64,000 bases of DNA, taken from assembly GCA_001179505.1 (NCBI GenBank), contig CDMY01000033.1, positions 62,001 to 126,000 of the forward strand, written 5' to 3'. The notes below the pieces were generated by a model, which ran no database searches, was not told the DNA's origin, and saw nothing but the letters and a program-made list of their open reading frames with translations. Positions 18,281 through 36,106 of the stretch are shown here, piece by piece. The stretch's first letter is position 1, and each line of letters begins with the position of its first letter. The position numbers were made by a program, and so were the translations under genes. The DNA comes from Vitrella brassicaformis CCMP3155 (Eukaryota; Protista; Chromerida).

Positions 18281-20359
18281 AGGAGGCGCATCCGTCAATC
18301 ATTCTCGCCTTGTGTGTGTGTGTGTGTGTATCGTTGAGTGACTTAGTGACCTTGATTTGAGCTATTTCCTTTTTGGTGATCTTGACCTGCTCTCCGCCGT
18401 ACTCGAAGTAGGTCTCAACGCTCTCAGGCAGCACAGACGCACCAGATAGGTCGGTACTGCACACACACACACACACAGAGCACACAAATGGGTGCAGGCG
18501 TCGTTGTGTTGTGTGTGTGTGTGTGGGGGGNNNNNNNNNNNNNNNNNNNNNNNNNNNNNNNNNNNNNNNNNNNNNNNNNNNNNNNNNNNNNNNNNNNNNN
18601 NNNNNNNNNNNNNNNNNNNNNNNNNNNNNNNNNNNNNNNNNNNNNNNNNNNNNNNNNNNNNNNNNNNNNNNNNNNNNNNNNNNNNNNNNNNNNNNNNNNN
18701 NNNNNNNNNNNNNNNNNNNNNNNNNNNNNNNNNNNNNNNNNNNNNNNNNNNNNNNNNNNNNNNNNNNNNNNNNNNNNNNNNNNNNNNNNNNNNNNNNNNN
18801 NNNNNNNNNNNNNNNNNNNNNNNNNNNNNNCGGGGGGGGGGGGGGGGAATCGGCCGCACATGACTCTTTTGGGTTTGAGTTCTGTGTTGTCGTCGGTGCA
18901 GATCTTGATGGCCGTCGGCGGCCGCTGGGGGAGCAACTCAGTGAACATGCAGACTGACACACATCATGACCACACAGACAGAGATCATGACAGACACAAA
19001 GAGCATGTGTGTGTTGTGTGTGTTGGTGTGGTGTGTGCCGACCCGCTACTTGTACGCCCTCTGCGATCTCGAACGTCAGGCTGTTCAACGTCCGCTGCTT
19101 GAACTCACGACTCCTGCACAACACACACACCACACAGTGGATGGGCCATGTATGTGTGAATGTGGCTGACTGGCTGACCAGATGCGCTGTTTGAGGTCGC
19201 CCAGCTTGAGGGCTGCGGTGAAATCGGGGTGGTCCTCCTCGCCCACCTGCAGCACGTCGCTCCAAAACGTATCGAAGTTGAACGGCTCGCGGCCTGACAC
19301 ACACACACACACAGAAGGGCGCACACACAGGGGTGGTCAGTGTGAGAAGGGCGGTGGACGTCTGGCTGCACACACGTGTGTGTGGATGTGTGTGTGTGTG
19401 TGTACCATCTGGCTGCATGGGGAAGAGCTCCAGGTCGGCCTCTGCTTGCAAGTCCTGGGCACTGCACACACACAAACCACACGAGTGCACACACAGCCCC
19501 CCCTCCCTCCCTCCCTCCCTCTCGCCCACCGTTGGACTGCAAAATCGAATGCCGCCTTGTCCCGCCCCACGGGGTCGTCCTCGGTGGTGAAGACGAGCAG
19601 GCGGCAGTTGTGGGTCTTCTTGATGTCGGTGCGGCTGAACAGCGTGCTGGCCAGCCAAAGCACCTCGCCCAACTTGGCCTTCGGGTCGCACTCCTTGAAC
19701 TCGCTGTGGATCTTGTCGAGCGTCCAGTCGCCCACCTTCTCGATGGCGGCCACGCGCTCGGCGTCGGGCACCTGCAGCTCGCCAGCCTGGCCGTCGGCCT
19801 TCAACACGTGAATGCCTGAAGTTGCCAGCACAGAGAGAGAGAGAGAGTGTAATGGTGGTGTGGGTGCTGGTGGTGTGTGTGTACCGTTGAAGCCGTCGCC
19901 CAGTTCTAACACGCATTTGGCTCCGATGTTGTAGAGCATGACGCCCACCTTGTCGCGGCTGCCGCGGATGATGCGCGTCTTCATGAACTCACACACCGTC
20001 TTCAACACGTCCTGATGGATCACACACAGCACACCAAGTGGCCCGCCGCTCGTGTGTCTGCGCCCCTCTGTGTGTGGGATCTGTCTGCCCAGCCACCTCA
20101 CTCCGAAGACGGTTCTCTTTTCGTTGCGCAGCGTCTTGATGGGCCCCTCGCTGACCTCCACCGGCGTGTCCTTCTTGTCAAACATGGCCTCGCTGCAGTC
20201 GACGGCGAACAGCACTGCCTCGCGGCTCTTGTGCCACTCCTTGGAGTCGCTGCCGCCCGCCAGGTCGGTGCCGCCCTCGAAGCGGCCCGACTCGCCGTAG
20301 TCAAAGTCGCCCGAGGTGTCCTCGCCCTGCTCGAAGCCGCCGCCCTCAAACTCAGTCAT
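16779..20359 (-). CDS. KU70: Ku70 (XRCC6), NHEJ DNA end-binding subunit
   Basis: vWA start REAVLFAVDCS, DKVGVMLYN and RLLVFTTEDDP; beta-barrel FDEPGMKLLGFKP, YPNKNRVKGSRVFFSALL and GFHLIGLPWAEDIR; NPMLQRHYQAIE; C-terminal SAP-like LKSFL...SGTKAVLVQRVKDLLK*. One intron contains an N gap. Confidence 0.96.
18531..18830. other. Assembly gap (300 N)
   Basis: Exactly 300 N flanked by G runs, inside a Ku70 intron. Confidence 1.
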
Positions 20360-27191: not shown

Positions 27192-29504
27192 TCACCTGCC
27201 CGTGTCTCCCATGGCAGTGTCGCGCAAAGCGGCGAAGAAGTCCAGCTCCTCCGCGGGGACCTGAGACGGCAGAAGGCTGCCTCCCACCGCCAGCCTGTCC
27301 CTGAGCTTGGCAAGACCCGGTTTGATGTCGTCCCCGAACCGCCCGCAGGCCTTGACCATCCTCGTCGTGATTCCCTTAGCGTACCTGCGGGCGAAAGTGT
27401 CGTGCGTGTGCGTGAGTGTGTGTGCGTGTGTGTGTGTGTCTGTCGGTGGNNNNNNNNNNNNNNNNNNNNNNNNNNNNNNNNNNNNNNNNNNNNNNNNNNN
27501 NNNNNNNNNNNNNNNNNNNNNNNNNNNNNNNNNNNNNNNNNNNNNNNNNNNNNNNNNNNNNNNNNNNNNNNNNNNNNNNNNNNNNNNNNNNNNNNNNNNN
27601 NNNNNNNNNNNNNNNNNNNNNNNNNNNNNNNNNNNNNNNNNNNNNNNNNNNNNNNNNNNNNNNNNNNNNNNNNNNNNNNNNNNNNNNNNNNNNNNNNNNN
27701 NNNNNNNNNNNNNNNNNNNNNNNNNNNNNNNNNNNNNNNNNNNNNNNNNGGCTGATTTCTTACTCGAAGACCGCAAACGAGTCGTTTAGGTCAAGTGTGC
27801 ATCGGTCTTTCGGTCCGTGGCGCAGACGGTCTCCATGAAGGAGACGTCGATCAGCATCAGGGAGTGAGGGCCTAGCTCCGTGAGAATGTACTCCTTGTAC
27901 GCGGCGCCGTTTCTTCGAGGAGCGACGGTACTAAATTCCGACGGGAAAGACGAGATGGGCAACAGCACATTCCCTAACGCACACACACACACACACACTC
28001 TACACACAGAGAGGCGGACACACTCAGAGACACATGTGGTGGCCGCCAGACGGCAGGCAAAGACGCCTCTCACCTGGATTCAGATCTGCGTGCGTAGAGG
28101 TCACACACAGTGCACACGTGCCAATCCTATGTCGATCATGCAGCTCCCTTAATGCATACCGCAGTGTGCCAGGTTGTGGCTGTGGAGTTGGTACATGCCT
28201 GTGGCCAGAAGCGCGATGACAAACGATCCAAATGGCATCTTCTGCTTGGCCCCCGTGGCAGGGTCCAGCAGCACATTCACGCGGCGGCGCCACAGGTCGG
28301 TTGCAGATAGCTGAAGTGTGAGGAGTTCTTCCAGGGAGATGCCTTCGAGACGCTGCATGACCAGGTGGTTGTCACGCAGCTGAGAAGGCAGCTCTGCAGG
28401 TACGCAAGAAGAGCGCGCGTACGTAAGGTTGGTTGTCTTGTCTCGTCTGCCGACGGATTATGGTCACTGACGTTTGATGACGTTTGGCTGCAGCGGGAGG
28501 ACACGAGGGAATTGGGGCAGATCCATTTCGATTTTTTGACTGTCGATGGTCGCCCAAAGGCTGTCGTACACTGCATACATGGAGAGAGACACACGTCCTT
28601 CTCTTACACGCACACACGCAGATAATCCATTCATTCGGTAGCGCGCACTTCTTTTCTCTCGTTGCAGCTCCTTTCTCCCCTCCTGCAGCGGGTCCTGATC
28701 AGGATGTGACAGCACCGCTGCAAACCCGATTTTGATGGCCACCGGCGATTCCGGATAAAGGCTTGAATGGCAAGAACACCGCTGAAGCATGGTATGCCGT
28801 ACCGCCGTCTCTAGCGTAGCGAGAGACACCGTACCGCTATCCAGACGATCTCGTGAGTCCTTGGGAAGATCGGCGAAATTTACAGCGGCTACATATGCAT
28901 TTAGAAGAGAAGACACACGTCAGGAAGACAAATAGAGCACTCCCTCCTTGCATCAACTGTCCTTACAGCGTAAAATCTCGGCCAGGACAACGACCTGACA
29001 AAGCAATAAAGCGGTCCGAGCCGTCCGAGCCAGGCAAACGTGCTGGGTGCGGCGGGGCCTACCGCATTGTTTCCCCGCATCGACCTGTAGTCACTATTGG
29101 AAACAAGAAGGAGACAATCGTGAGATGGTGTCGTGTGGGAGGAGGAGACACGAGAAACACCCCTGCTCTCCCCAGCTCACTCAATGCGATAGCGTGGCAC
29201 AGCCGCGAACGCCGAATTCTAGTCCCTTGTCGAGCTCACCGAGCATGTCCCGGTGCTTCTTCCAGAAGTCCTTCAGCAATGGATCAATCTTTTGGGGCTC
29301 GGTGCGAAGCTTGACGTTGCAGTAGACAGGTTTCAACCTGCACACCTCACGCACCAGCAAGCTGTAATCCCACTTGTCACCCACAGCTGGCGCATCAAGC
29401 CCTTTCCTGCCGTTAAGGGCGGGGACAGACAAGACAGTGCGGCCGTCCACAAAGACCGACGAGGCAGCAGTGAGGATGAGTGTCTGCAGGCCGACCGAAA
29501 GCAT
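27192..29504 (-). CDS. Divergent protein kinase-like gene with hydrophobic N-terminus (possibly truncated or pseudogenised)
   Basis: Phase-consistent spliced model: MLSVGLQTLILTAASSVFVDG...; LDSGTVSLA (Gly-loop position); PVAIKIG; ELQRE (alphaC); LVMQRLEGISL (hinge); LHSHNLAHCDLNPGNVLL (catalytic loop); LMLIDVSF (DFG position). An in-frame TAA at 27786-27788 and a gap obscure the C-lobe. Confidence 0.62.
27450..27749. other. Assembly gap (300 N)
   Basis: Exactly 300 N. Confidence 1.
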
Positions 29505-29754
29505 TGCAACCTTAGTTTCTGGCAGGGCCCGGGCGGCTCTGAATCGTCGGCACAATAAGACGGAATGGGGGCTGCATGCAATTTCCTGTCCGGGGGAGTT
29601 GCTGGCCGGTCGAGATGCGCGTTCAACCGCAACATCCCTAACACCTTTGGCAGATCTCCACTCCTCTCACGTGACTGTTCCGAGTCTTCCAACCGGGAGA
29701 GATCGTGCTTCAAGCCGGCCCGACGACAGCTGCTCCTCCGACTCGATCCTCGAT

Positions 29755-30054
29755 ATGGGTGTGTTCGACTTCAGAGCGCTGTTAGGGAACCAGACCGACA
29801 CGCCCGAGATCTACGAATTTGAGCCCTGTGTCACGTACGGGCTGCAGAGTCGGCGGCGGTTTGACATCGAGGCCTTCATCCGGGGCATCAAGAGACAGAT
29901 TTGCACGAGATACATGCCCAGGGAGATCTTTGAGGGCGTTCCCGGTGTGAAAATTCCCGAGGATCAAAGAGACAAGAGGGTCGTCACACTTGACCTGCGC
30001 TGCATCAAGGAGGCTCAAAGTACGCCATCCTACCAGTCAGTCATCCACGGATAG
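29755..30054 (+). CDS. Small intronless hypothetical protein (~99 aa)
   Basis: ATG-started MGVFDFRALLGNQTDTPEIYEFEPC...VIHG* with C/G-ending codon bias like host genes. Head-to-head with the kinase gene. No family recognised. Confidence 0.4.
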   Translation: MGVFDFRALLGNQTDTPEIYEFEPCVTYGLQSRRRFDIEAFIRGIKRQICTRYMPREIFEGVPGVKIPEDQRDKRVVTLDLRCIKEAQSTPSYQSVIHG

Positions 30055-30084
30055 CCTCATCGTCACAAGCAAGAAACAAAGAAA

Positions 30085-30216
30085 CGCTGCGGTTTCTGCT
30101 GCCTGCACCCTTTACATGCGATCGGCCAGTAGGCGTGCGCGCTTCTATGTGTGGCAGTGACTCTGATACATCAATCGACGTGTGAGCGGTCAGAAGCACG
30201 TGCAACCACAGATCTA
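30085..30216 (+). repeat. 5' pseudo-LTR (132 bp)
   Basis: Identical to 34982-35113 except for 2 substitutions. No target-site duplication seen. Confidence 0.95.
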
Positions 30217-30369
30217 CGTCTGTAAGGAGGAGATCCAGCCATTGGTGTTCCTTCTGAAACGTTCCTTCACCCTGTCTCCGTCCTCGTTACCCGTACTCAT
30301 CTCCCGCCCCCTCTGCCGTTCCCCCTGAGTGACCCCCACGCGCTCTAGCGCACCTCGCGCGTCTCCCTC

Positions 30370-31689
30370 ATGGCGTCCCAGCGCAACCCGGATCTCTTGG
30401 CAGATCTCAAGAGATCTACCACCACCGGCAGCACTGCCATGCGTTTTGGTTTCCAGACGTTCGGCAGCGCCAACCCGTTCGGCAGCGTCAACCCGAGCCC
30501 ATCCACGCCGCCCAGCACGCCTGGCTGCGGACAATGCCAAAGCGTCCGCCATCTCAACAGCCCGCTCAACCCATTCCGCGTCGGATTCAAGAGAAACGAC
30601 CGCTTCGTGGCGTGTGTAGCCATGACACCCGCCATCGAAAGTGCCATCAATGGCGGCACCAAGCAATACAAGCTCGTCGACAACGGCTACGCTCAGCTCA
30701 TAGAAGACCTCACCCAGCCCAAGCAGGACACCCCCAATCCCCTCATCGGCCTCCAACACCATGAGGCCGAGATCCGAGGCCTCAGCAGCGGCATGATCCA
30801 TCTCGCTGCCATCATGACCATGCGACTCTGCAAGAAGCACAACTACAACACGCCCCTCCAACGTGGTGCTAGTGACAATGCGGCTGCCGACAGATACCTC
30901 ATCAACCCGATGAATCGCGCAGATGTCCACAACCCACTTGCCAACGATTTGACGGCTGCCACGCACTGCGTCGCGGAGCTCGGCAACTTCCTCGTCAAGA
31001 ACGACAGTGACACGGCAATGGCGCTCATGCAGGCGCTACCCACCATCCTCCAGGACTTCGCCACCCGGTCAGTCCCTTCCTCCGGCCGCAGACGCAAGAC
31101 CCCATCGGCCGCGGCTGCTGCTGCTGCCGCCCCACCGGCAGATACGGAGCCGTCCTCTCCCTTCACCCCCAATGACCTGTTCGGCAACATGGACCATGAT
31201 GAGCAGGACGCCGATTTCGAGATGTATGATGACGACGTCGCCATCCCCCGTCGAGACGTCATCCCGTCCGCCCGCTACAAGACGCTGCCCACATTCCAGG
31301 CCCGCATCGCCTCCATCCCCGCCGACCTCAAACAATTCATGGGTGAGGCCGCAGCACCCAAGGACATCGTGCTGCTCACGAGTGCGAGCGACTGCACGAT
31401 CGACTACCCCAATGTGTTCGACGACGTCACTAAGCAGCAGGCTACCCTCTTCGCCAGCCAAATCGCCTCTGTGCTTCCCCCGGCCAAGACACCACGCGCC
31501 CACACCGCCCAGGACCTCCTCCTCAGCTGGGGCAAGCGCATCGACAATAGCGCTGAGCTCACAATCAAGGACGTCATCAACTACGTGGCCATCCACTATG
31601 CCATCAACCTACGCGCCGGAGTCCCCTTCCGTGCGTCCCAGGGACCATCAGTCACCACACGTGGTCGCACACAGAAGAAAGCTGACTGA
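30370..31689 (+). CDS. ORF1 of the Penelope-like element, 439 aa, unknown function
   Basis: Intronless ORF with strong C-ending codon bias, lying between the terminal repeats. Ends at TGA 31687-31689, in frame with the GIY-YIG ORF. Confidence 0.85.
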   Translation: MASQRNPDLLADLKRSTTTGSTAMRFGFQTFGSANPFGSVNPSPSTPPSTPGCGQCQSVRHLNSPLNPFRVGFKRNDRFVACVAMTPAIESAINGGTKQYKLVDNGYAQLIEDLTQPKQDTPNPLIGLQHHEAEIRGLSSGMIHLAAIMTMRLCKKHNYNTPLQRGASDNAAADRYLINPMNRADVHNPLANDLTAATHCVAELGNFLVKNDSDTAMALMQALPTILQDFATRSVPSSGRRRKTPSAAAAAAAAPPADTEPSSPFTPNDLFGNMDHDEQDADFEMYDDDVAIPRRDVIPSARYKTLPTFQARIASIPADLKQFMGEAAAPKDIVLLTSASDCTIDYPNVFDDVTKQQATLFASQIASVLPPAKTPRAHTAQDLLLSWGKRIDNSAELTIKDVINYVAIHYAINLRAGVPFRASQGPSVTTRGRTQKKAD

Positions 31690-31723
31690 TGTAAGGCGCC
31701 ACTGGAGCTTCGCCCCCAGTGGC
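31687..31723 (+). promoter_or_regulatory. Candidate recoding signal: TGA + 8-nt spacer + hairpin
   Basis: TGA tgtaaggc GCCACTGG agcttcgccc CCAGTGGC: perfect 8-bp stem (31698-31705/31716-31723) with a 10-nt loop. Function inferred. Confidence 0.5.
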
Positions 31724-33528
31724 AACAACGCACTCTACCTGTGCTGCCTGCGAATCCGTTTTCCTCGTCTGTTGTGTCTGTCTGCTGTAGATCTGACTAT
31801 GTATCGTCATCAGTCGGATCGCCGCGCGCGTCACCCACCTTTTCCCGTTGCGCGTGTTGTACTACTGGGCATAACTCACTCACTCACGTACACGAACAAG
31901 GGGCTGCCGTCCACCCATCTGAGCATGCAATCTCGTTGCTTTTGTCTGCGTGTGAGAATGTGTGTGCGAAGCTGTCGAGTACTCGTCAGGTCTTTCGTTT
32001 TCTTCGGTTTATGTCACGTGTCCGCCACCTACTCCACTACTTGCGTACACATACTCGCTGCTCTTACTGCCGTTGCACATGGCGTACGTGCCGCTGTGAG
32101 TGTCTTTTTATTCTGCAGCCAACACACTGTGAGCCTTTCCGCAGGGTGCGTTTGGACGGCTTACGTGATTTCGCCTCACTCTGCACTCAACGCCGCCTGA
32201 CACCATCGTCCATCAAGGCTCTCTGTATGCGTGTGTTCTCTATTCAACCTCGTGCGATGTGTGCTCTTGTATCACGCACCCCCACCCCTTTCCTGCGTAA
32301 GATCCATGCAATGCGAGAGCGACTGGGTGCCCTTTTCGCACCTGGCGTACATGATATGAAACATGGCCTGTACTTACTTTGTTCGCCTTGGTCTACTCAC
32401 TCGTATTTGGGCTTCACGGCGCGTGGATATGTTGTTCGCTGGGATGAGCATGTCGGTCATGCATTTCATTATGGCACTCGCTCTCGATCTTCGCAGCAAC
32501 ACTTGTATGGCTCTCTGTCGCGTCATGATGTGTGTACGTATGCATGTGTTCCTTTGTGTTCATTCGATACGTTGCGACTTACTATATCTCAGATGAAGTC
32601 GATCGAAGCACAGGCCATTGATGTATTTCAACCGTCGCTCAACACACAATCGTCGTCTCGTCATGACTTGCATGCGCTGCATCGCCCCCGTTTTGGCCCT
32701 GCATCTGGCCGTCCTCGTATGGTCCGTGGCTTGCGTTTGAGGTATCATTCGGTGTCTTCCATGCCGCCTGCTTTGCCTTTTCGTGCCTTTTCCCCCATTC
32801 ATCCATCTGCTGACTCACTCCCCTCTGCATTGCTGAATTCGTCTGTGTCACCACCCACCCTCTGTGCCACTGCTGCTTTGCTTGCTCGTCGTCCATCCCC
32901 CAGCCAGGCTATCCTTGCTGCGATTCGTGCATTGCCGGACGCTGACAAGTTGAATGACATGTCGTGCTTCCGCCAGGCAGCGATTCATGCCATACGGTCT
33001 CTCCTGTCTGAGACTGCTTCATCGTCATTGTTCCATGTCCAGGCAGCGTTCATTCCATCTGCGTGTCCATCCATCACGACTCTGTTTTACAATGCTAAGC
33101 GAATGGCGTCTCAGCCTCTCTCACAAGTTGTTTGTCCATGCCATTTGCCTCACTTCGCTCAATGGCCACGTATCGATGGGCATGTCTGTGTACGCCTGAG
33201 TGACCCATTCATGCGTGACGTTCTGTCTGTCCCACTACACTGGAATCGCAACAGTACATGCTTACCTACTTTCTCGGCGGTTAAACGTCAGTTTCGTTCT
33301 GTCGTGTTGCGTCTCTTTCGTCGTATATCTCAGCCAGAGCCACCCGCGCACGTGATCGATCAGTGTGCTGAGTCTGTGTTGCGCCCTGCGTACAGCCAGT
33401 TAGCCGGGTCGGGTCGTTTTCTTCCAATGCACGATGTGTTGCGTCACTCTACCCTTCTTCGCTCACTTGCATGTGCTCCAGTTGACAAGAGCAAAGGTGA
33501 CATGGCATGGATGTGCCCACTGCAGTAG
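31690..33528 (+). CDS. ORF2a: Cys/His-rich segment, GIY-YIG endonuclease (32365-32643), CxC linker (33133-33141) and start of the RT
   Basis: Stop-free frame from the ORF1 TGA to TAG 33526. First in-frame ATG only at 32011. Motifs as listed. Confidence 0.88.
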   Translation, partial: CKAPLELRPQWQQRTLPVLPANPFSSSVVSVCCRSDYVSSSVGSPRASPTFSRCACCTTGHNSLTHVHEQGAAVHPSEHAISLLLSACENVCAKLSSTRQVFRFLRFMSRVRHLLHYLRTHTRCSYCRCTWRTCRCECLFILQPTHCEPFRRVRLDGLRDFASLCTQRRLTPSSIKALCMRVFSIQPRAMCALVSRTPTPFLRKIHAMRERLGALFAPGVHDMKHGLYLLCSPWSTHSYLGFTARGYVVRWDEHVGHAFHYGTRSRSSQQHLYGSLSRHDVCTYACVPLCSFDTLRLTISQMKSIEAQAIDVFQPSLNTQSSSRHDLHALHRPRFGPASGRPRMVRGLRLRYHSVSSMPPALPFRAFSPIHPSADSLPSALLNSSVSPPTLCATAALLARRPSPSQAILAAIRALPDADKLNDMSCFRQAAIHAIRSLLSETASSSLFHVQAAFIPSACPSITTLFYNAKRMASQPLSQVVCPCHLPHFAQWPRIDGHVCVRLSDPFMRDVLSVPLHWNRNSTCLPTFSAVKRQFRSVVLRLFRRISQPEPPAHVIDQCAESVLRPAYSQLAGSGRFLPMHDVLRHSTLLRSLACAPVDKSKGDMAWMCPLQ

Positions 33529-34919
33529 TGACAGCGGTGTGGCGATTGCATGTGAGTAACCCATCTTATCGTGTCTCTACGTGTAATGATGATGTGGTGT
33601 ATGATGATTTTAGCCAGCTGCCGAAGTTTTTGGACGGCCCACGTATTGCCCAGCCCCGTGTGCATCACACGTGGGGCACGGCTATCGTGTGGCCCAAGGC
33701 GAAGTCTTTTCGTACACAGCTTACGTCATGGGATGCGATGAAATGGCGACCTCTGAACTCTTACTTTCGCCATCGTTTCGCGCGCATCTATGCGGATGTA
33801 GGGCGGGCTTCGGGTGTGTTGAATGAGTACATGTCAGACCATTTTTCTTGCATGCGTATCAGTTCTCTTTTCCATGCATTGGCGTCACATAATCGCTTGT
33901 TGCATGGCCATGCTGTATTATGTGGATCGCTATCGTCGACTGTGTCTGTGTGTGTGCATGATATTGGTAATCTTTATCCCAGCTGCCCCCGTGTGGAGGC
34001 TCTCGCTGCATTGCATGCTGCGTACAACTGGCTGAAAGACACAAAGCGTTATCGCTACGTCAACATTCCTCGTGCCCCTCCCTGGCCTGTCCATCGTAGT
34101 ACTCGCTCTCGTCTCTATCCCTCTCGCTTTGGATCCATGCGATGTGCCACGGCAACACGTCTGAAGCCGTTTTTCAGCACTAACGCCAACTATCTATCAT
34201 GTCGTACGTACACCATCGAGGATATCGTTCGTGTCGTTGAGCATGATCTTGCATTCAGCTACACTCGTGTGGGCGGTGTTTTGTTCTATCAACGTGAGGG
34301 CTTCTCGCAGGGCAGCCATATCAGCCCTGGTCTTGCTAATCTGTTCGCTGCTGACAGAGAGCGTGCATTTGTTCATTCACTGTCTCCAAATGAGCGCCAC
34401 GTGTTCTCACTGTGTTTCGTTCGACGATGGATGGATGATCGGTTGTTGATCCTGCCACCTGTCGACTATTTTCCATCTCATTACACTCATGCCTATTCAT
34501 CTGTGGTGTCGCGGCTGATGGCTACTGATTTTTATCATGAGCACTGCGTCTTGGAGTTGGATGCATCTGGTGTGTATGTCGGTTGCGATATCCATGTGAA
34601 TGGCTCTCAAGTGTCTCTCTCTCAGCACAACCCCAATGCTGACTTGCTCACTCGTCCCCTCTCCTCACCACTTGCCTACATTCGGTACATTCATGCCCAT
34701 TCTGCCATGTCTGATGCTCGTAAAGCTAATCTGCTGTATGGACATCTGCTGCGTGTGCTTGACTTTACCATGCGCGAGTGTCATGAGTCTCTCGTGATTG
34801 GTCTCTCTCGCTGTGTGAATGAGTTGACTCGTTTTGGCTTTTCACGCCCTTTGATTCATCGCCAACTCACTCGTGTTGCTCGCCACTTCCCCGCACTGCT
34901 GCGTGCATTACGTGAGTGA
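33507..34919 (+). CDS. ORF2b: Penelope-type reverse transcriptase core and thumb, offset -1 from ORF2a
   Basis: Motif A Asp at 33960, motif B QGS at 34308, motif C WMDD at 34428. The ~110-aa A-to-B spacing is compatible with an insertion-in-fingers domain. Confidence 0.93.
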   Translation: MDVPTAVVTAVWRLHVSNPSYRVSTCNDDVVYDDFSQLPKFLDGPRIAQPRVHHTWGTAIVWPKAKSFRTQLTSWDAMKWRPLNSYFRHRFARIYADVGRASGVLNEYMSDHFSCMRISSLFHALASHNRLLHGHAVLCGSLSSTVSVCVHDIGNLYPSCPRVEALAALHAAYNWLKDTKRYRYVNIPRAPPWPVHRSTRSRLYPSRFGSMRCATATRLKPFFSTNANYLSCRTYTIEDIVRVVEHDLAFSYTRVGGVLFYQREGFSQGSHISPGLANLFAADRERAFVHSLSPNERHVFSLCFVRRWMDDRLLILPPVDYFPSHYTHAYSSVVSRLMATDFYHEHCVLELDASGVYVGCDIHVNGSQVSLSQHNPNADLLTRPLSSPLAYIRYIHAHSAMSDARKANLLYGHLLRVLDFTMRECHESLVIGLSRCVNELTRFGFSRPLIHRQLTRVARHFPALLRALRE

Positions 34920-34981
34920 TGCCTTGCTTGTCGTCTGCTTGCCCGTTGTTGTCGTATCACCGCATTCTGCGAGACTAGTAC

Positions 34982-35113
34982 CGCTGCGGTTTCTGCTGCC
35001 TGCACCCTTTACATGCGATTGGCCAGTAGGCGTGCGCGCTTCTATGTGTGGCAGTGACTCTGATACATCAATCGACGTGTGAGCGGTCAGAAGCACGTCC
35101 AACCACAGATCTA
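34982..35113 (+). repeat. 3' pseudo-LTR (132 bp)
   Basis: Direct repeat of 30085-30216. Confidence 0.95.
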
Positions 35114-35171
35114 ACGGCTGAGCTGGCTACGTGTGTGTGTGTTGTCTTATCCATGATCGAATGGAATGCCA

Positions 35172-35345
35172 GCGCTCTTGTTCACATACGATCTGGACAT
35201 AGGCACTGACGCGGCCCAGGAGCGCGTTAACAGATGGGAGGAGACGTTTATCGCCGTCATGTCCGACTACACCGACCTTGAGAATCCTGGCAGGCACTTC
35301 CCTGGGCTAGAGGTCTCTTTCTTGACCCATGGGGGCAGAGGTCAG
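35172..35345 (+). pseudogene. Isolated exon-like fragment resembling a Patched/NPC1-family luminal segment
   Basis: ALLFTYDL...AQERVNRWEETFIAVM...GLEVSFLTH resembles the A-x-x-WE-x-x-FI...VSF segment preceding the sterol-sensing domain. AG acceptor upstream; no partner exons found. Confidence 0.3.
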
Positions 35346-36106
35346 GCGGGCAAGGAGCACTACATGTGACATTATACGAGGAAGGGGCACTCTCTGACTC
35401 TGTGTCTCCTCTCTCTCTCTCTCTCTCTCTGCGTGTGTGTGTGTGTGTGGTGTAGCCGACGCCCTCTAGTAAGGAAGCAGACGGAGACACGGAACAATCC
35501 TCTGCTTGATTCCTCGTGTGTGTCCCTGCCCCTCCCTCCCTCCCTCTCTCCCTCTGTGTGTGTGTGCGTGTGTCTGTGTGTGCAACAAGTCCCCCCGATT
35601 GGGACACCGGCGACACACAACCACCAGAAGAGTCGCCGGAATGGTACGAGGGCGAGTGGGTGGTCTGGGTCGCGGGCGCGGGGGCGGTGACAGGGACGGC
35701 CGTGATGACCTGTGTGGCGGGGGCGGTGGGCGCCTGGCTCTCCCGGAGGAAGAGACGAAACGCTGTCGGGGGTGGGCTGACCGATGCCAGTGCCCATGCG
35801 GCAAGTGAGAGGAGCTAGCCAAAAGGCGGGCTGCTCACACAGAGAGAGACACACGGAGGAACGGAGTTTTCGGTTTAGGAGGCTGTCTGTCTGTGAGGAT
35901 TTGTTTGAGCGATAGATCTCTCAGTTTTTCGGTGTGTCGTCGCATTTGAGCTCAATCGCTCTGCCCTCGGTGTGTGTGTGTGTGCCTCGGTGTGTGTGTG
36001 CCTCGGTGTGTGTGTGTGTGTGTCTGTGTGTGCGACAAAGTGGTGAAAGATAGTCCATGGAAGGCGTGGACTGATAGGGGTGGGTGCACTATTAAGGGAC
36101 CCATGT

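Follow-up and report, generated by a model that had tools for sequence, protein, structure and literature searches.

Within a window of 64,000 nucleotides (nt) from Vitrella brassicaformis CCMP3155 (contig CDMY01000033.1, positions 62,001 to 126,000, forward strand; coordinates below are those of the window) we analysed an element at 30085-35113 that, by its motifs, is a two-ORF Penelope-like retrotransposon. It is bounded by 132-nt direct repeats and holds a first open reading frame (ORF1) of 439 amino acids (aa), the endonuclease (EN) half of a second one (ORF2) and a reverse transcriptase (RT) frame. The conserved TGA of ORF1, together with an 8-nt spacer and a hairpin, is likely a stop-codon readthrough signal. 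With a probability of roughly 0.55 we favour hairpin-stimulated UGA readthrough, which would give an ORF1-EN-RT fusion predicted from sequence, while splicing would leave an mRNA for ORF1 only.

For this, a few ribosomes on RNA that retains a 100-nt intron would decode the UGA with an ordinary amino acid and continue into a fusion, which in an intact element would have ~1,570 aa. Spliced RNA, devoid of the hairpin and of the frame, would yield ORF1 only; splicing and readthrough would jointly set a high ORF1:RT ratio, and the intron-retaining RNA would also be the form copied into DNA. We put at about even odds the more specific proposal that the signal lies within an alternatively retained intron in such a way that one splicing decision toggles recoding, fixes the proportion of ORF1 to RT and accounts for the need to keep the intron on copying.

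Conservation and selection at the ORF1 stop

The TGA at 31687-31689 is the sole in-frame stop between 30370 and a TAG at 33526. A sequence-only reading of this DNA had placed ORF1 and the EN frame in one phase with a single TGA between 30370 and 33525, a perfect 8-bp stem exactly 8 nt after it and the next in-frame ATG 107 codons on, at 32011; all of these were borne out, as was the TGATG-TAA start-stop overlap, which is out of frame. The stem (GCCACTGG/CCAGTGGC) begins at 31698. The + strand of the window contains 33 perfect 8-bp stems with loops of 3-15 nt, and such a stem begins 4-12 nt downstream of 3 of its 1053 TGA triplets, the junction TGA included. Folding of 31690-31760 gave z = -2.49, with 4 of 200 shuffles as good; the longer segment 31687-31800 gave only z = -1.18, with 26 of 200.

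For comparison we used 8 of 20 listed sequencing runs, seven of which cover the junction region (X1, X2, X3, X4, X5, X6 and X11; X12 is without junction cover). Their contigs contain a second subfamily (subfamily 2), which differs at 171 positions in 1012 nt over 31698-32706 (83% nt identity); its ORF1, P0002, has 59% aa identity, and a loose contig end upstream of 31682 codes for the P0002 C-terminus. A 46-nt block comprising the TGA, the splice donor, the spacer and the whole hairpin is identical in both subfamilies. Given 83% identity, 37 nt without a difference at this pre-named site would be expected with a probability of 0.001, and no change at the 8 synonymous sites in the block with one of 0.024. 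The hairpin is modest taken singly; its conservation raises it above chance. As to whether other copies would keep the TGA, the frame and the spacer, subfamily 2 has them all, and the sole indel seen after its TGA is a net 3-nt insertion that leaves the frame unbroken.

Results showed that the stretch after the stop is under purifying selection in the EN frame. The selection test used 55 of the ~171 differences, namely those listed for 31728-31787 and 31872-32070 and 12 from loose ends at 31791-31833; it left out 31834-31869 and everything beyond 32070, and the listed stretches were assumed complete. Between the TGA and 32010 the EN frame carries 19 synonymous and 23 non-synonymous changes and no stop, a ratio of non-synonymous to synonymous rates (dN/dS) of 0.37 (7 of 5000 permutations as high, p = 0.0014), in line with the value below 1 proposed as a check in the sequence-only reading. 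For 31792-32010 alone, 13 of 61 residues are changed vs. 19.9 expected (p = 0.0012). The caution of that reading that the +1 frame is open as well holds for the window copy (30953-32197); it is removed by subfamily 2, since the +1 frame there has two stops (31943 and 31967), and the ratio in this frame is 1.9. The in-frame ATG at 32011 and a +1 ATG at 31799 are both lost in subfamily 2, and position 31774, in the EN frame inside the intron, starts a GTG in the window copy and an ATG in subfamily 2 (G>A). No AUG common to both subfamilies, in the codons covered, could begin the selected stretch. On the sequence comparison, we conclude that the junction is programmed and is not a nonsense mutation. 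A codon-usage score made no consistent choice of frame. Further junction DNA was not found in metagenome or viral scans, and prokaryote scans gave no relative, only 7 pattern-only matches without a tblastn match.

Other accounts of the junction were considered and dropped. A larger predicted fold around the hairpin is disrupted by the subfamily 2 changes at 31731, 31733, 31746 and 31752 (read by eye). Two further possibilities were rejected: a frameshift to -1 ahead of the stop, because that frame meets a TGA at 31683, within the shared block, and a genome-wide reassignment of TGA, because a TGA closes the RT frame where its relatives end. Separately, the loop of the hairpin (31706-31713) has one perfect 8-nt complement in the element, at 31966-31973, and the subfamily 2 change at 31967 would preserve a G-U pair; long-range pairing is possible, at near chance level, and the P0096 residues differ there.

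The retained intron and the RNA that encodes the enzyme

The sequence-only reading had mentioned, as a caveat, a GTAAGG donor at 31691 and an acceptor at 31790 that would define a 100-nt intron and leave the TGA in place. The intron exists (donor GT 31691, acceptor AG 31789-31790): the 31690-31791 joint occurs in 2 of the 7 covering runs (X2 and X4, from two studies, likely RNA), and none was found in the contigs of X1, X3, X5, X6 and X11. The caveat underrated its weight, as splicing keeps the TGA, deletes the hairpin and joins the ORF1 frame to the unselected +1 frame. A restart at the ATG 31799 after splicing was rejected, given that this ATG is lost in subfamily 2 and that the frame contains stops.

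Spliced and retained patterns span both subfamilies. For X4, the window's subfamily is present only as the spliced form; subfamily 2 gives a 160-nt contig (the intron with 30 nt per side, depth 42) plus a downstream contig starting at the acceptor (depth 74), as is typical of an intron that is retained in part and uses identical splice sites. For X2, subfamily 2 crosses the intron without a break, and both forms occur for the window's subfamily (~6 retained, ~13 spliced), figures that show presence only, contig depth being a poor gauge of level.

To judge which RNA encodes EN-RT we used P0096, an intact EN-RT of 1136 aa with 50% identity in the EN half and 61% in the RT. When the intron is translated in the EN frame, its codons 5-24 are identical to the P0096 N-terminus at 14 of 20 residues, and codons 13-24, past the hairpin, at 8 of 12; neither match was equalled in 20000 shuffles. 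The two subfamilies differ at 7 of the 36 nt of codons 13-24, with 4 of these 7 changes synonymous, a share that by itself is not significant (p = 0.097). Because two close subfamilies already differ to this extent, DNA similarity is unlikely to be the only reason why the distant P0096 kept 8 of 12 residues. The intron peptide thus suggests that EN-RT is likely read from the intron-retaining RNA, starting at or before codon 5 after the stop.

Readthrough and alternative routes to the enzyme

UGA followed by U is a weak terminator, and for copia a gag-only spliced mRNA is known. Readthrough fits the junction because an in-frame stop is present, a structure lies 8 nt away, no AUG is needed and Penelope-like elements offer a precedent for recoding: their ORF1 and RT can be linked by a frameshift with a pseudoknot (PMC8557442, Fig. 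1 legend). An 8-nt spacer before a 3′ structure is likewise the layout of the murine leukaemia virus (MuLV), alphavirus, plant-virus and kelch readthrough sites (PMC3159437). As in known cases of readthrough, we found a conserved in-frame stop, a selected downstream frame and no shared AUG, with a structure at the expected spacing of ~8 nt; from this layout we infer the hairpin's role and a fusion protein. Readthrough, as proposed in the sequence-only reading, stands as the best candidate mechanism, but in the window copy itself the fusion would stop at the TAG 33526 after 1052 codons, with no full RT and with 49 aa of the relatives missing.

A number of observations weigh against readthrough. 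The junction DNA is known from two sequences only and, because both stems are identical, compensatory changes could not be seen; the 46-nt block could have arisen by gene conversion, and another shared run, of 32 nt at 32677-32708, shows that long identical runs occur elsewhere in the element. Within the intron, selection judged from the two subfamilies alone was not significant (dN/dS 0.46, p = 0.21; other test p = 0.097). That X2 and X4 are RNA is likely, judged by the splice joint. In Tca2, a similar UGA with a predicted pseudoknot gave no readthrough when assayed with a reporter (PMC2194720). The 111 proteins compared include no natural ORF1-EN-RT fusion in which a sense codon replaces the stop. 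The first residue called for P0096 is a Met, encoded by the codon that directly follows the position of the stop, and long relatives begin 65-167 aa before a Cys cluster that the junction TGA precedes by 123 aa; ORF2 therefore resembles a stand-alone protein, which fits reinitiation.

Such termination-reinitiation on intron-retaining RNA, with a restart within a few codons of the UGA and a separate EN-RT as product, is the main competing explanation, which we regard as rather unlikely. The hairpin would aid the coupling, splicing would still shut RT off, and the start would be a non-AUG codon in the window copy (AAG 31693 or CTG 31702), whereas the P0096 family might use an AUG. It accounts for the conservation of the intron peptide as well as readthrough does and agrees with the stand-alone length of ORF2. 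A one-codon-gapped alignment, made by eye, sets the P0096 Met on the window AAG, although this Met may be the gene caller's label for a GTG or TTG. L1 ORF2 translation is AUG-independent, and L1 and SART1 share a bicistronic RNA with our element, SART1 also a structure downstream of the ORF1 stop. SART1 couples its ORFs with a required downstream structure (PMC3894237, PMC10275272), and reinitiation can use near-cognate codons at no more than 45% of wild type. Unlike SART1, where UAAUG overlaps in another frame, the overlapping AUG here stands directly before a UAA; no other AUG lies at the stop, and this one is not in the EN frame. Moreover, neither subfamily has an in-frame AUG in codons 1-28, yet selection persisted; CTG 31702 sits within the stem, and the common frame and the exact 8-nt spacing would be incidental. 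A separate transcript from an internal promoter near the junction, or leaky scanning, with a near-cognate start or one at 31774 and with the conserved block as a promoter or splicing element, appears quite improbable. The G>A change at 31774 does create an in-frame ATG in subfamily 2, Penelope and Chlamys-3 carry an intron overlapping an internal promoter (PMC8557442), and the Tca2 junction shows minor promoter activity (PMC2194720); but the conserved peptide extends upstream of 31774, the window's subfamily has GTG there, and contigs link ORF1 to ORF2 across the splice.

The spliced RNA could itself be the EN-RT message, the CTG that overlaps the stop (C-TGA, 31686-88) coming into the EN frame after splicing and acting as a coupled non-AUG restart. 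The spliced junction does read stop-Leu-Ile-Ser-Asp in the EN frame, and the spliced form dominates the window's subfamily in X4, but such a message would omit codons 1-33, the site of the best P0096 match, and would leave the hairpin conservation and the open, in-phase intron frame unexplained; we consider it very improbable. Decoding of the UGA as selenocysteine, raised in the sequence-only reading on the model of some Naiads, is scarcely credible. Naiads that encode selenocysteine exist (PMC8557442) and a stem-loop near such a UGA is described for SEPN1; yet no selenocysteine insertion sequence (SECIS) was found in an Rfam scan of 29500-35600 or by a crude pattern scan of 31690-35300 (0 matches). 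Naiad UGAs stand mostly at conserved Zn-finger cysteines (PMC8557442) and the junction UGA at an ORF boundary; of the hallmarks of Naiad selenoproteins, the UGA at a conserved Cys is thus absent and the 3′ untranslated SECIS was not found in the two scans. Least probable of all is that the copy is dead and owes its TGA to nonsense mutation or faulty assembly. The window copy does have two other lesions, but subfamily 2 carries the same TGA, under selection since the split, which refutes this explanation unless the block spread by recent gene conversion, and run contigs agree with the window across the TGA.

If readthrough is correct, the junction would be a two-layer switch, with splicing placed over recoding within 100 nt, and would add Penelope-like elements to the known instances of stop readthrough. 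No such case was found in the literature searched (subscription journals, Repbase and bioRxiv supplements were outside the search), nor any paper on Penelope elements in Vitrella brassicaformis or on readthrough with intron retention in a retrotransposon. The components are individually known; their combination in a Penelope-like element appears new. Craig et al. call the significance of intron retention in these elements unknown (PMC8557442). A testable reason for it would be that the intron, when retained, supplies the beginning of the enzyme's coding sequence, which holds for readthrough and for reinitiation alike. The short cassette is suited to reporter work.

Classification, comparison and layout of the element

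By motifs, and with the definitions of PMC8557442, the element is placed with the N-terminal-EN group of Penelope-like elements, which extends this group to a chromerid alga. Traits common to Naiad and Chlamys were recognised by motif: an RT preceded by a GIY-YIG endonuclease that has the residues R, H, E and N (ORF2 and P0096), a CxC between EN and RT (CPC at 33133 and at P0096 residue 538), and pseudo-long terminal repeats (pseudo-LTRs; 132-nt direct repeats, 98.5% identity). Pfam gave no GIY-YIG match for the EN half, whose endonuclease was recognised by motif reading. As to a possible fingers-domain insertion, the distance from motif A to motif B in P0096 is 116 aa. Chlamys traits are the lack of CCHH (no Cys pair shared between GLY and YLG/YIG), a DKSKG sequence, i.e., DK without a fixed third residue, and no hammerhead in the Rfam scan. 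A Zn-finger linker upstream of EN, absent in Chlamys, may have a counterpart here: a CxxCxCx4CxC cluster lies ~100 aa upstream in ORF2 and P0096. Because of this cluster we call the element Chlamys-like and do not file it as Chlamys. Its loose pattern (CxxC...CxC, 32059-32097) occurs in 9 of 12 long relatives, P0096 included, and may be the signature of a branch of N-terminal-EN elements not yet described.

The element thus resembles Chlamys in its N-terminal GIY-YIG without CCHH, R/H/E/N residues, CxC, DK, pseudo-LTRs and lack of a canonical hammerhead, and Chlamys-2_cBra also has an upstream ORF (PMC8557442). It differs in that its ORF1 has no zinc knuckle or Pfam match and is in frame with EN-RT across a UGA, in the Cys cluster upstream of EN, and in its host group, which that paper does not name. 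Further comparison concerns recoding.

Athena is a clade of Penelope-like elements with an ORF1 joined by frameshift and pseudoknot. In elements of this design, too, recoding aided by a 3′ RNA structure connects ORF1 with the RT ORF (PMC8557442, Fig. 1 legend), in contrast to which our element has an in-frame UGA with a simple hairpin, a signal in a spliced intron, and an EN. MuLV gag-pol, alphavirus nsP3/4 and Drosophila kelch (PMC3159437) share the stop, the 8-nt spacer, the 3′ structure and extra synonymous-site conservation; the UGA-U context, the short 8-bp stem, the identical stems without covariation and a structure removable by splicing set the present junction apart. Tca2 of Candida albicans is also a retrotransposon with two in-frame ORFs parted by a UGA and a predicted 3′ structure, but it is an LTR element, its readthrough reporter was negative in S. 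cerevisiae, and its abstract mentions no intron (PMC2194720).

Features of the element and of the junction (window coordinates)
Feature	Position	Strand	Evidence or remark
5′ pseudo-LTR (direct terminal repeat)	30085..30216	+	132 nt; 98.5% identity with 34982-35113
ORF1, 439 aa, without known family	30370..31689	+	paralogue P0002: 59% identity, 437 aa, same end point
46 nt without a difference between the subfamilies (TGA, donor, spacer, whole hairpin)	31682..31727	+	shared contigs in X3, X5; first difference 31728
ORF1 TGA, in frame with EN-RT; context GAC TGA TGT	31687..31689	+	sequence; kept in subfamily 2
8-nt spacer with GTAAGG donor and out-of-frame ATG-TAA (31689-31694)	31690..31697	+	sequence
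ORF2 5′ half (EN half)	31690..33528	+	612 codons after TGA; 50% identity to P0096
GT-AG intron, 100 nt, partly spliced, partly retained; open in EN frame	31691..31790	+	joint 31690-31791 in X2, X4; retained contig in X4
Hairpin: 8-bp Watson-Crick stem, 10-nt loop, predicted -14.2 kcal/mol	31698..31723	+	folding
ORF2 motifs	Cys cluster 32059; GIY-YIG-type endonuclease GLYL 32365, YLGF 32404, R/H 32437, E 32602, N 32635	+	motif positions
147-nt in-frame deletion site, window copy	32949..32951	+	49-aa gap vs. P0003 and P0096
ORF2 further motifs	CxC 33133; DK motif 33481	+	motif positions
RT frame	33501..34919	+	ends at ordinary-stop TGA; weak RVT_1 (E = 0.037); 61% identity to P0096
Frameshift break between EN half and RT frame, window copy	33526..33531	+	P0096 continuous at this point
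3′ pseudo-LTR	34982..35113	+	partner of 30085-30216 repeat

The window copy is defective downstream: the frameshift near 33526 and the 147-nt deletion make a full RT impossible. The frameshift is not an assembly error, because sequencing-run contigs span the break without gaps. P0004 and P0097 terminate at the same residue as the RT frame; P0003 has the same end stop, is identical in sequence there and may be the same copy. At 32794 and 32833-32950 run contigs carry a variant resembling P0003, which is of higher depth and has 4 nt inserted at 32794; further, partly broken or mosaic copies therefore exist. Beyond the terminal repeats the window has no second element copy.

A Pfam search gave no match for ORF1, and its AlphaFold model was unusable (mean predicted confidence, pLDDT, 30). 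P0002, also from Vitrella brassicaformis, is the sole ORF1 relative found, and its element occurs in the same sequencing runs as the window copy. Third codon positions of ORF1 (30370-31686) are 55% C and 13% T; T makes up 38-41% in EN and RT (31690-34916), a contrast that may reflect different origins or constraints.

Assembly gaps of 300 N each lie at 18531, 21726, 27450 and 54984, none within the element. One subfamily 2 contig of X2 passes from the RT end (34919) into terminal-repeat sequence (30110), and another jumps from 34780 to 34951, 170 nt, without GT-AG ends. Loose contig ends occur on both flanks (30064-30100 and 35235), which suggests that the element lies inside or beside another repeated sequence.

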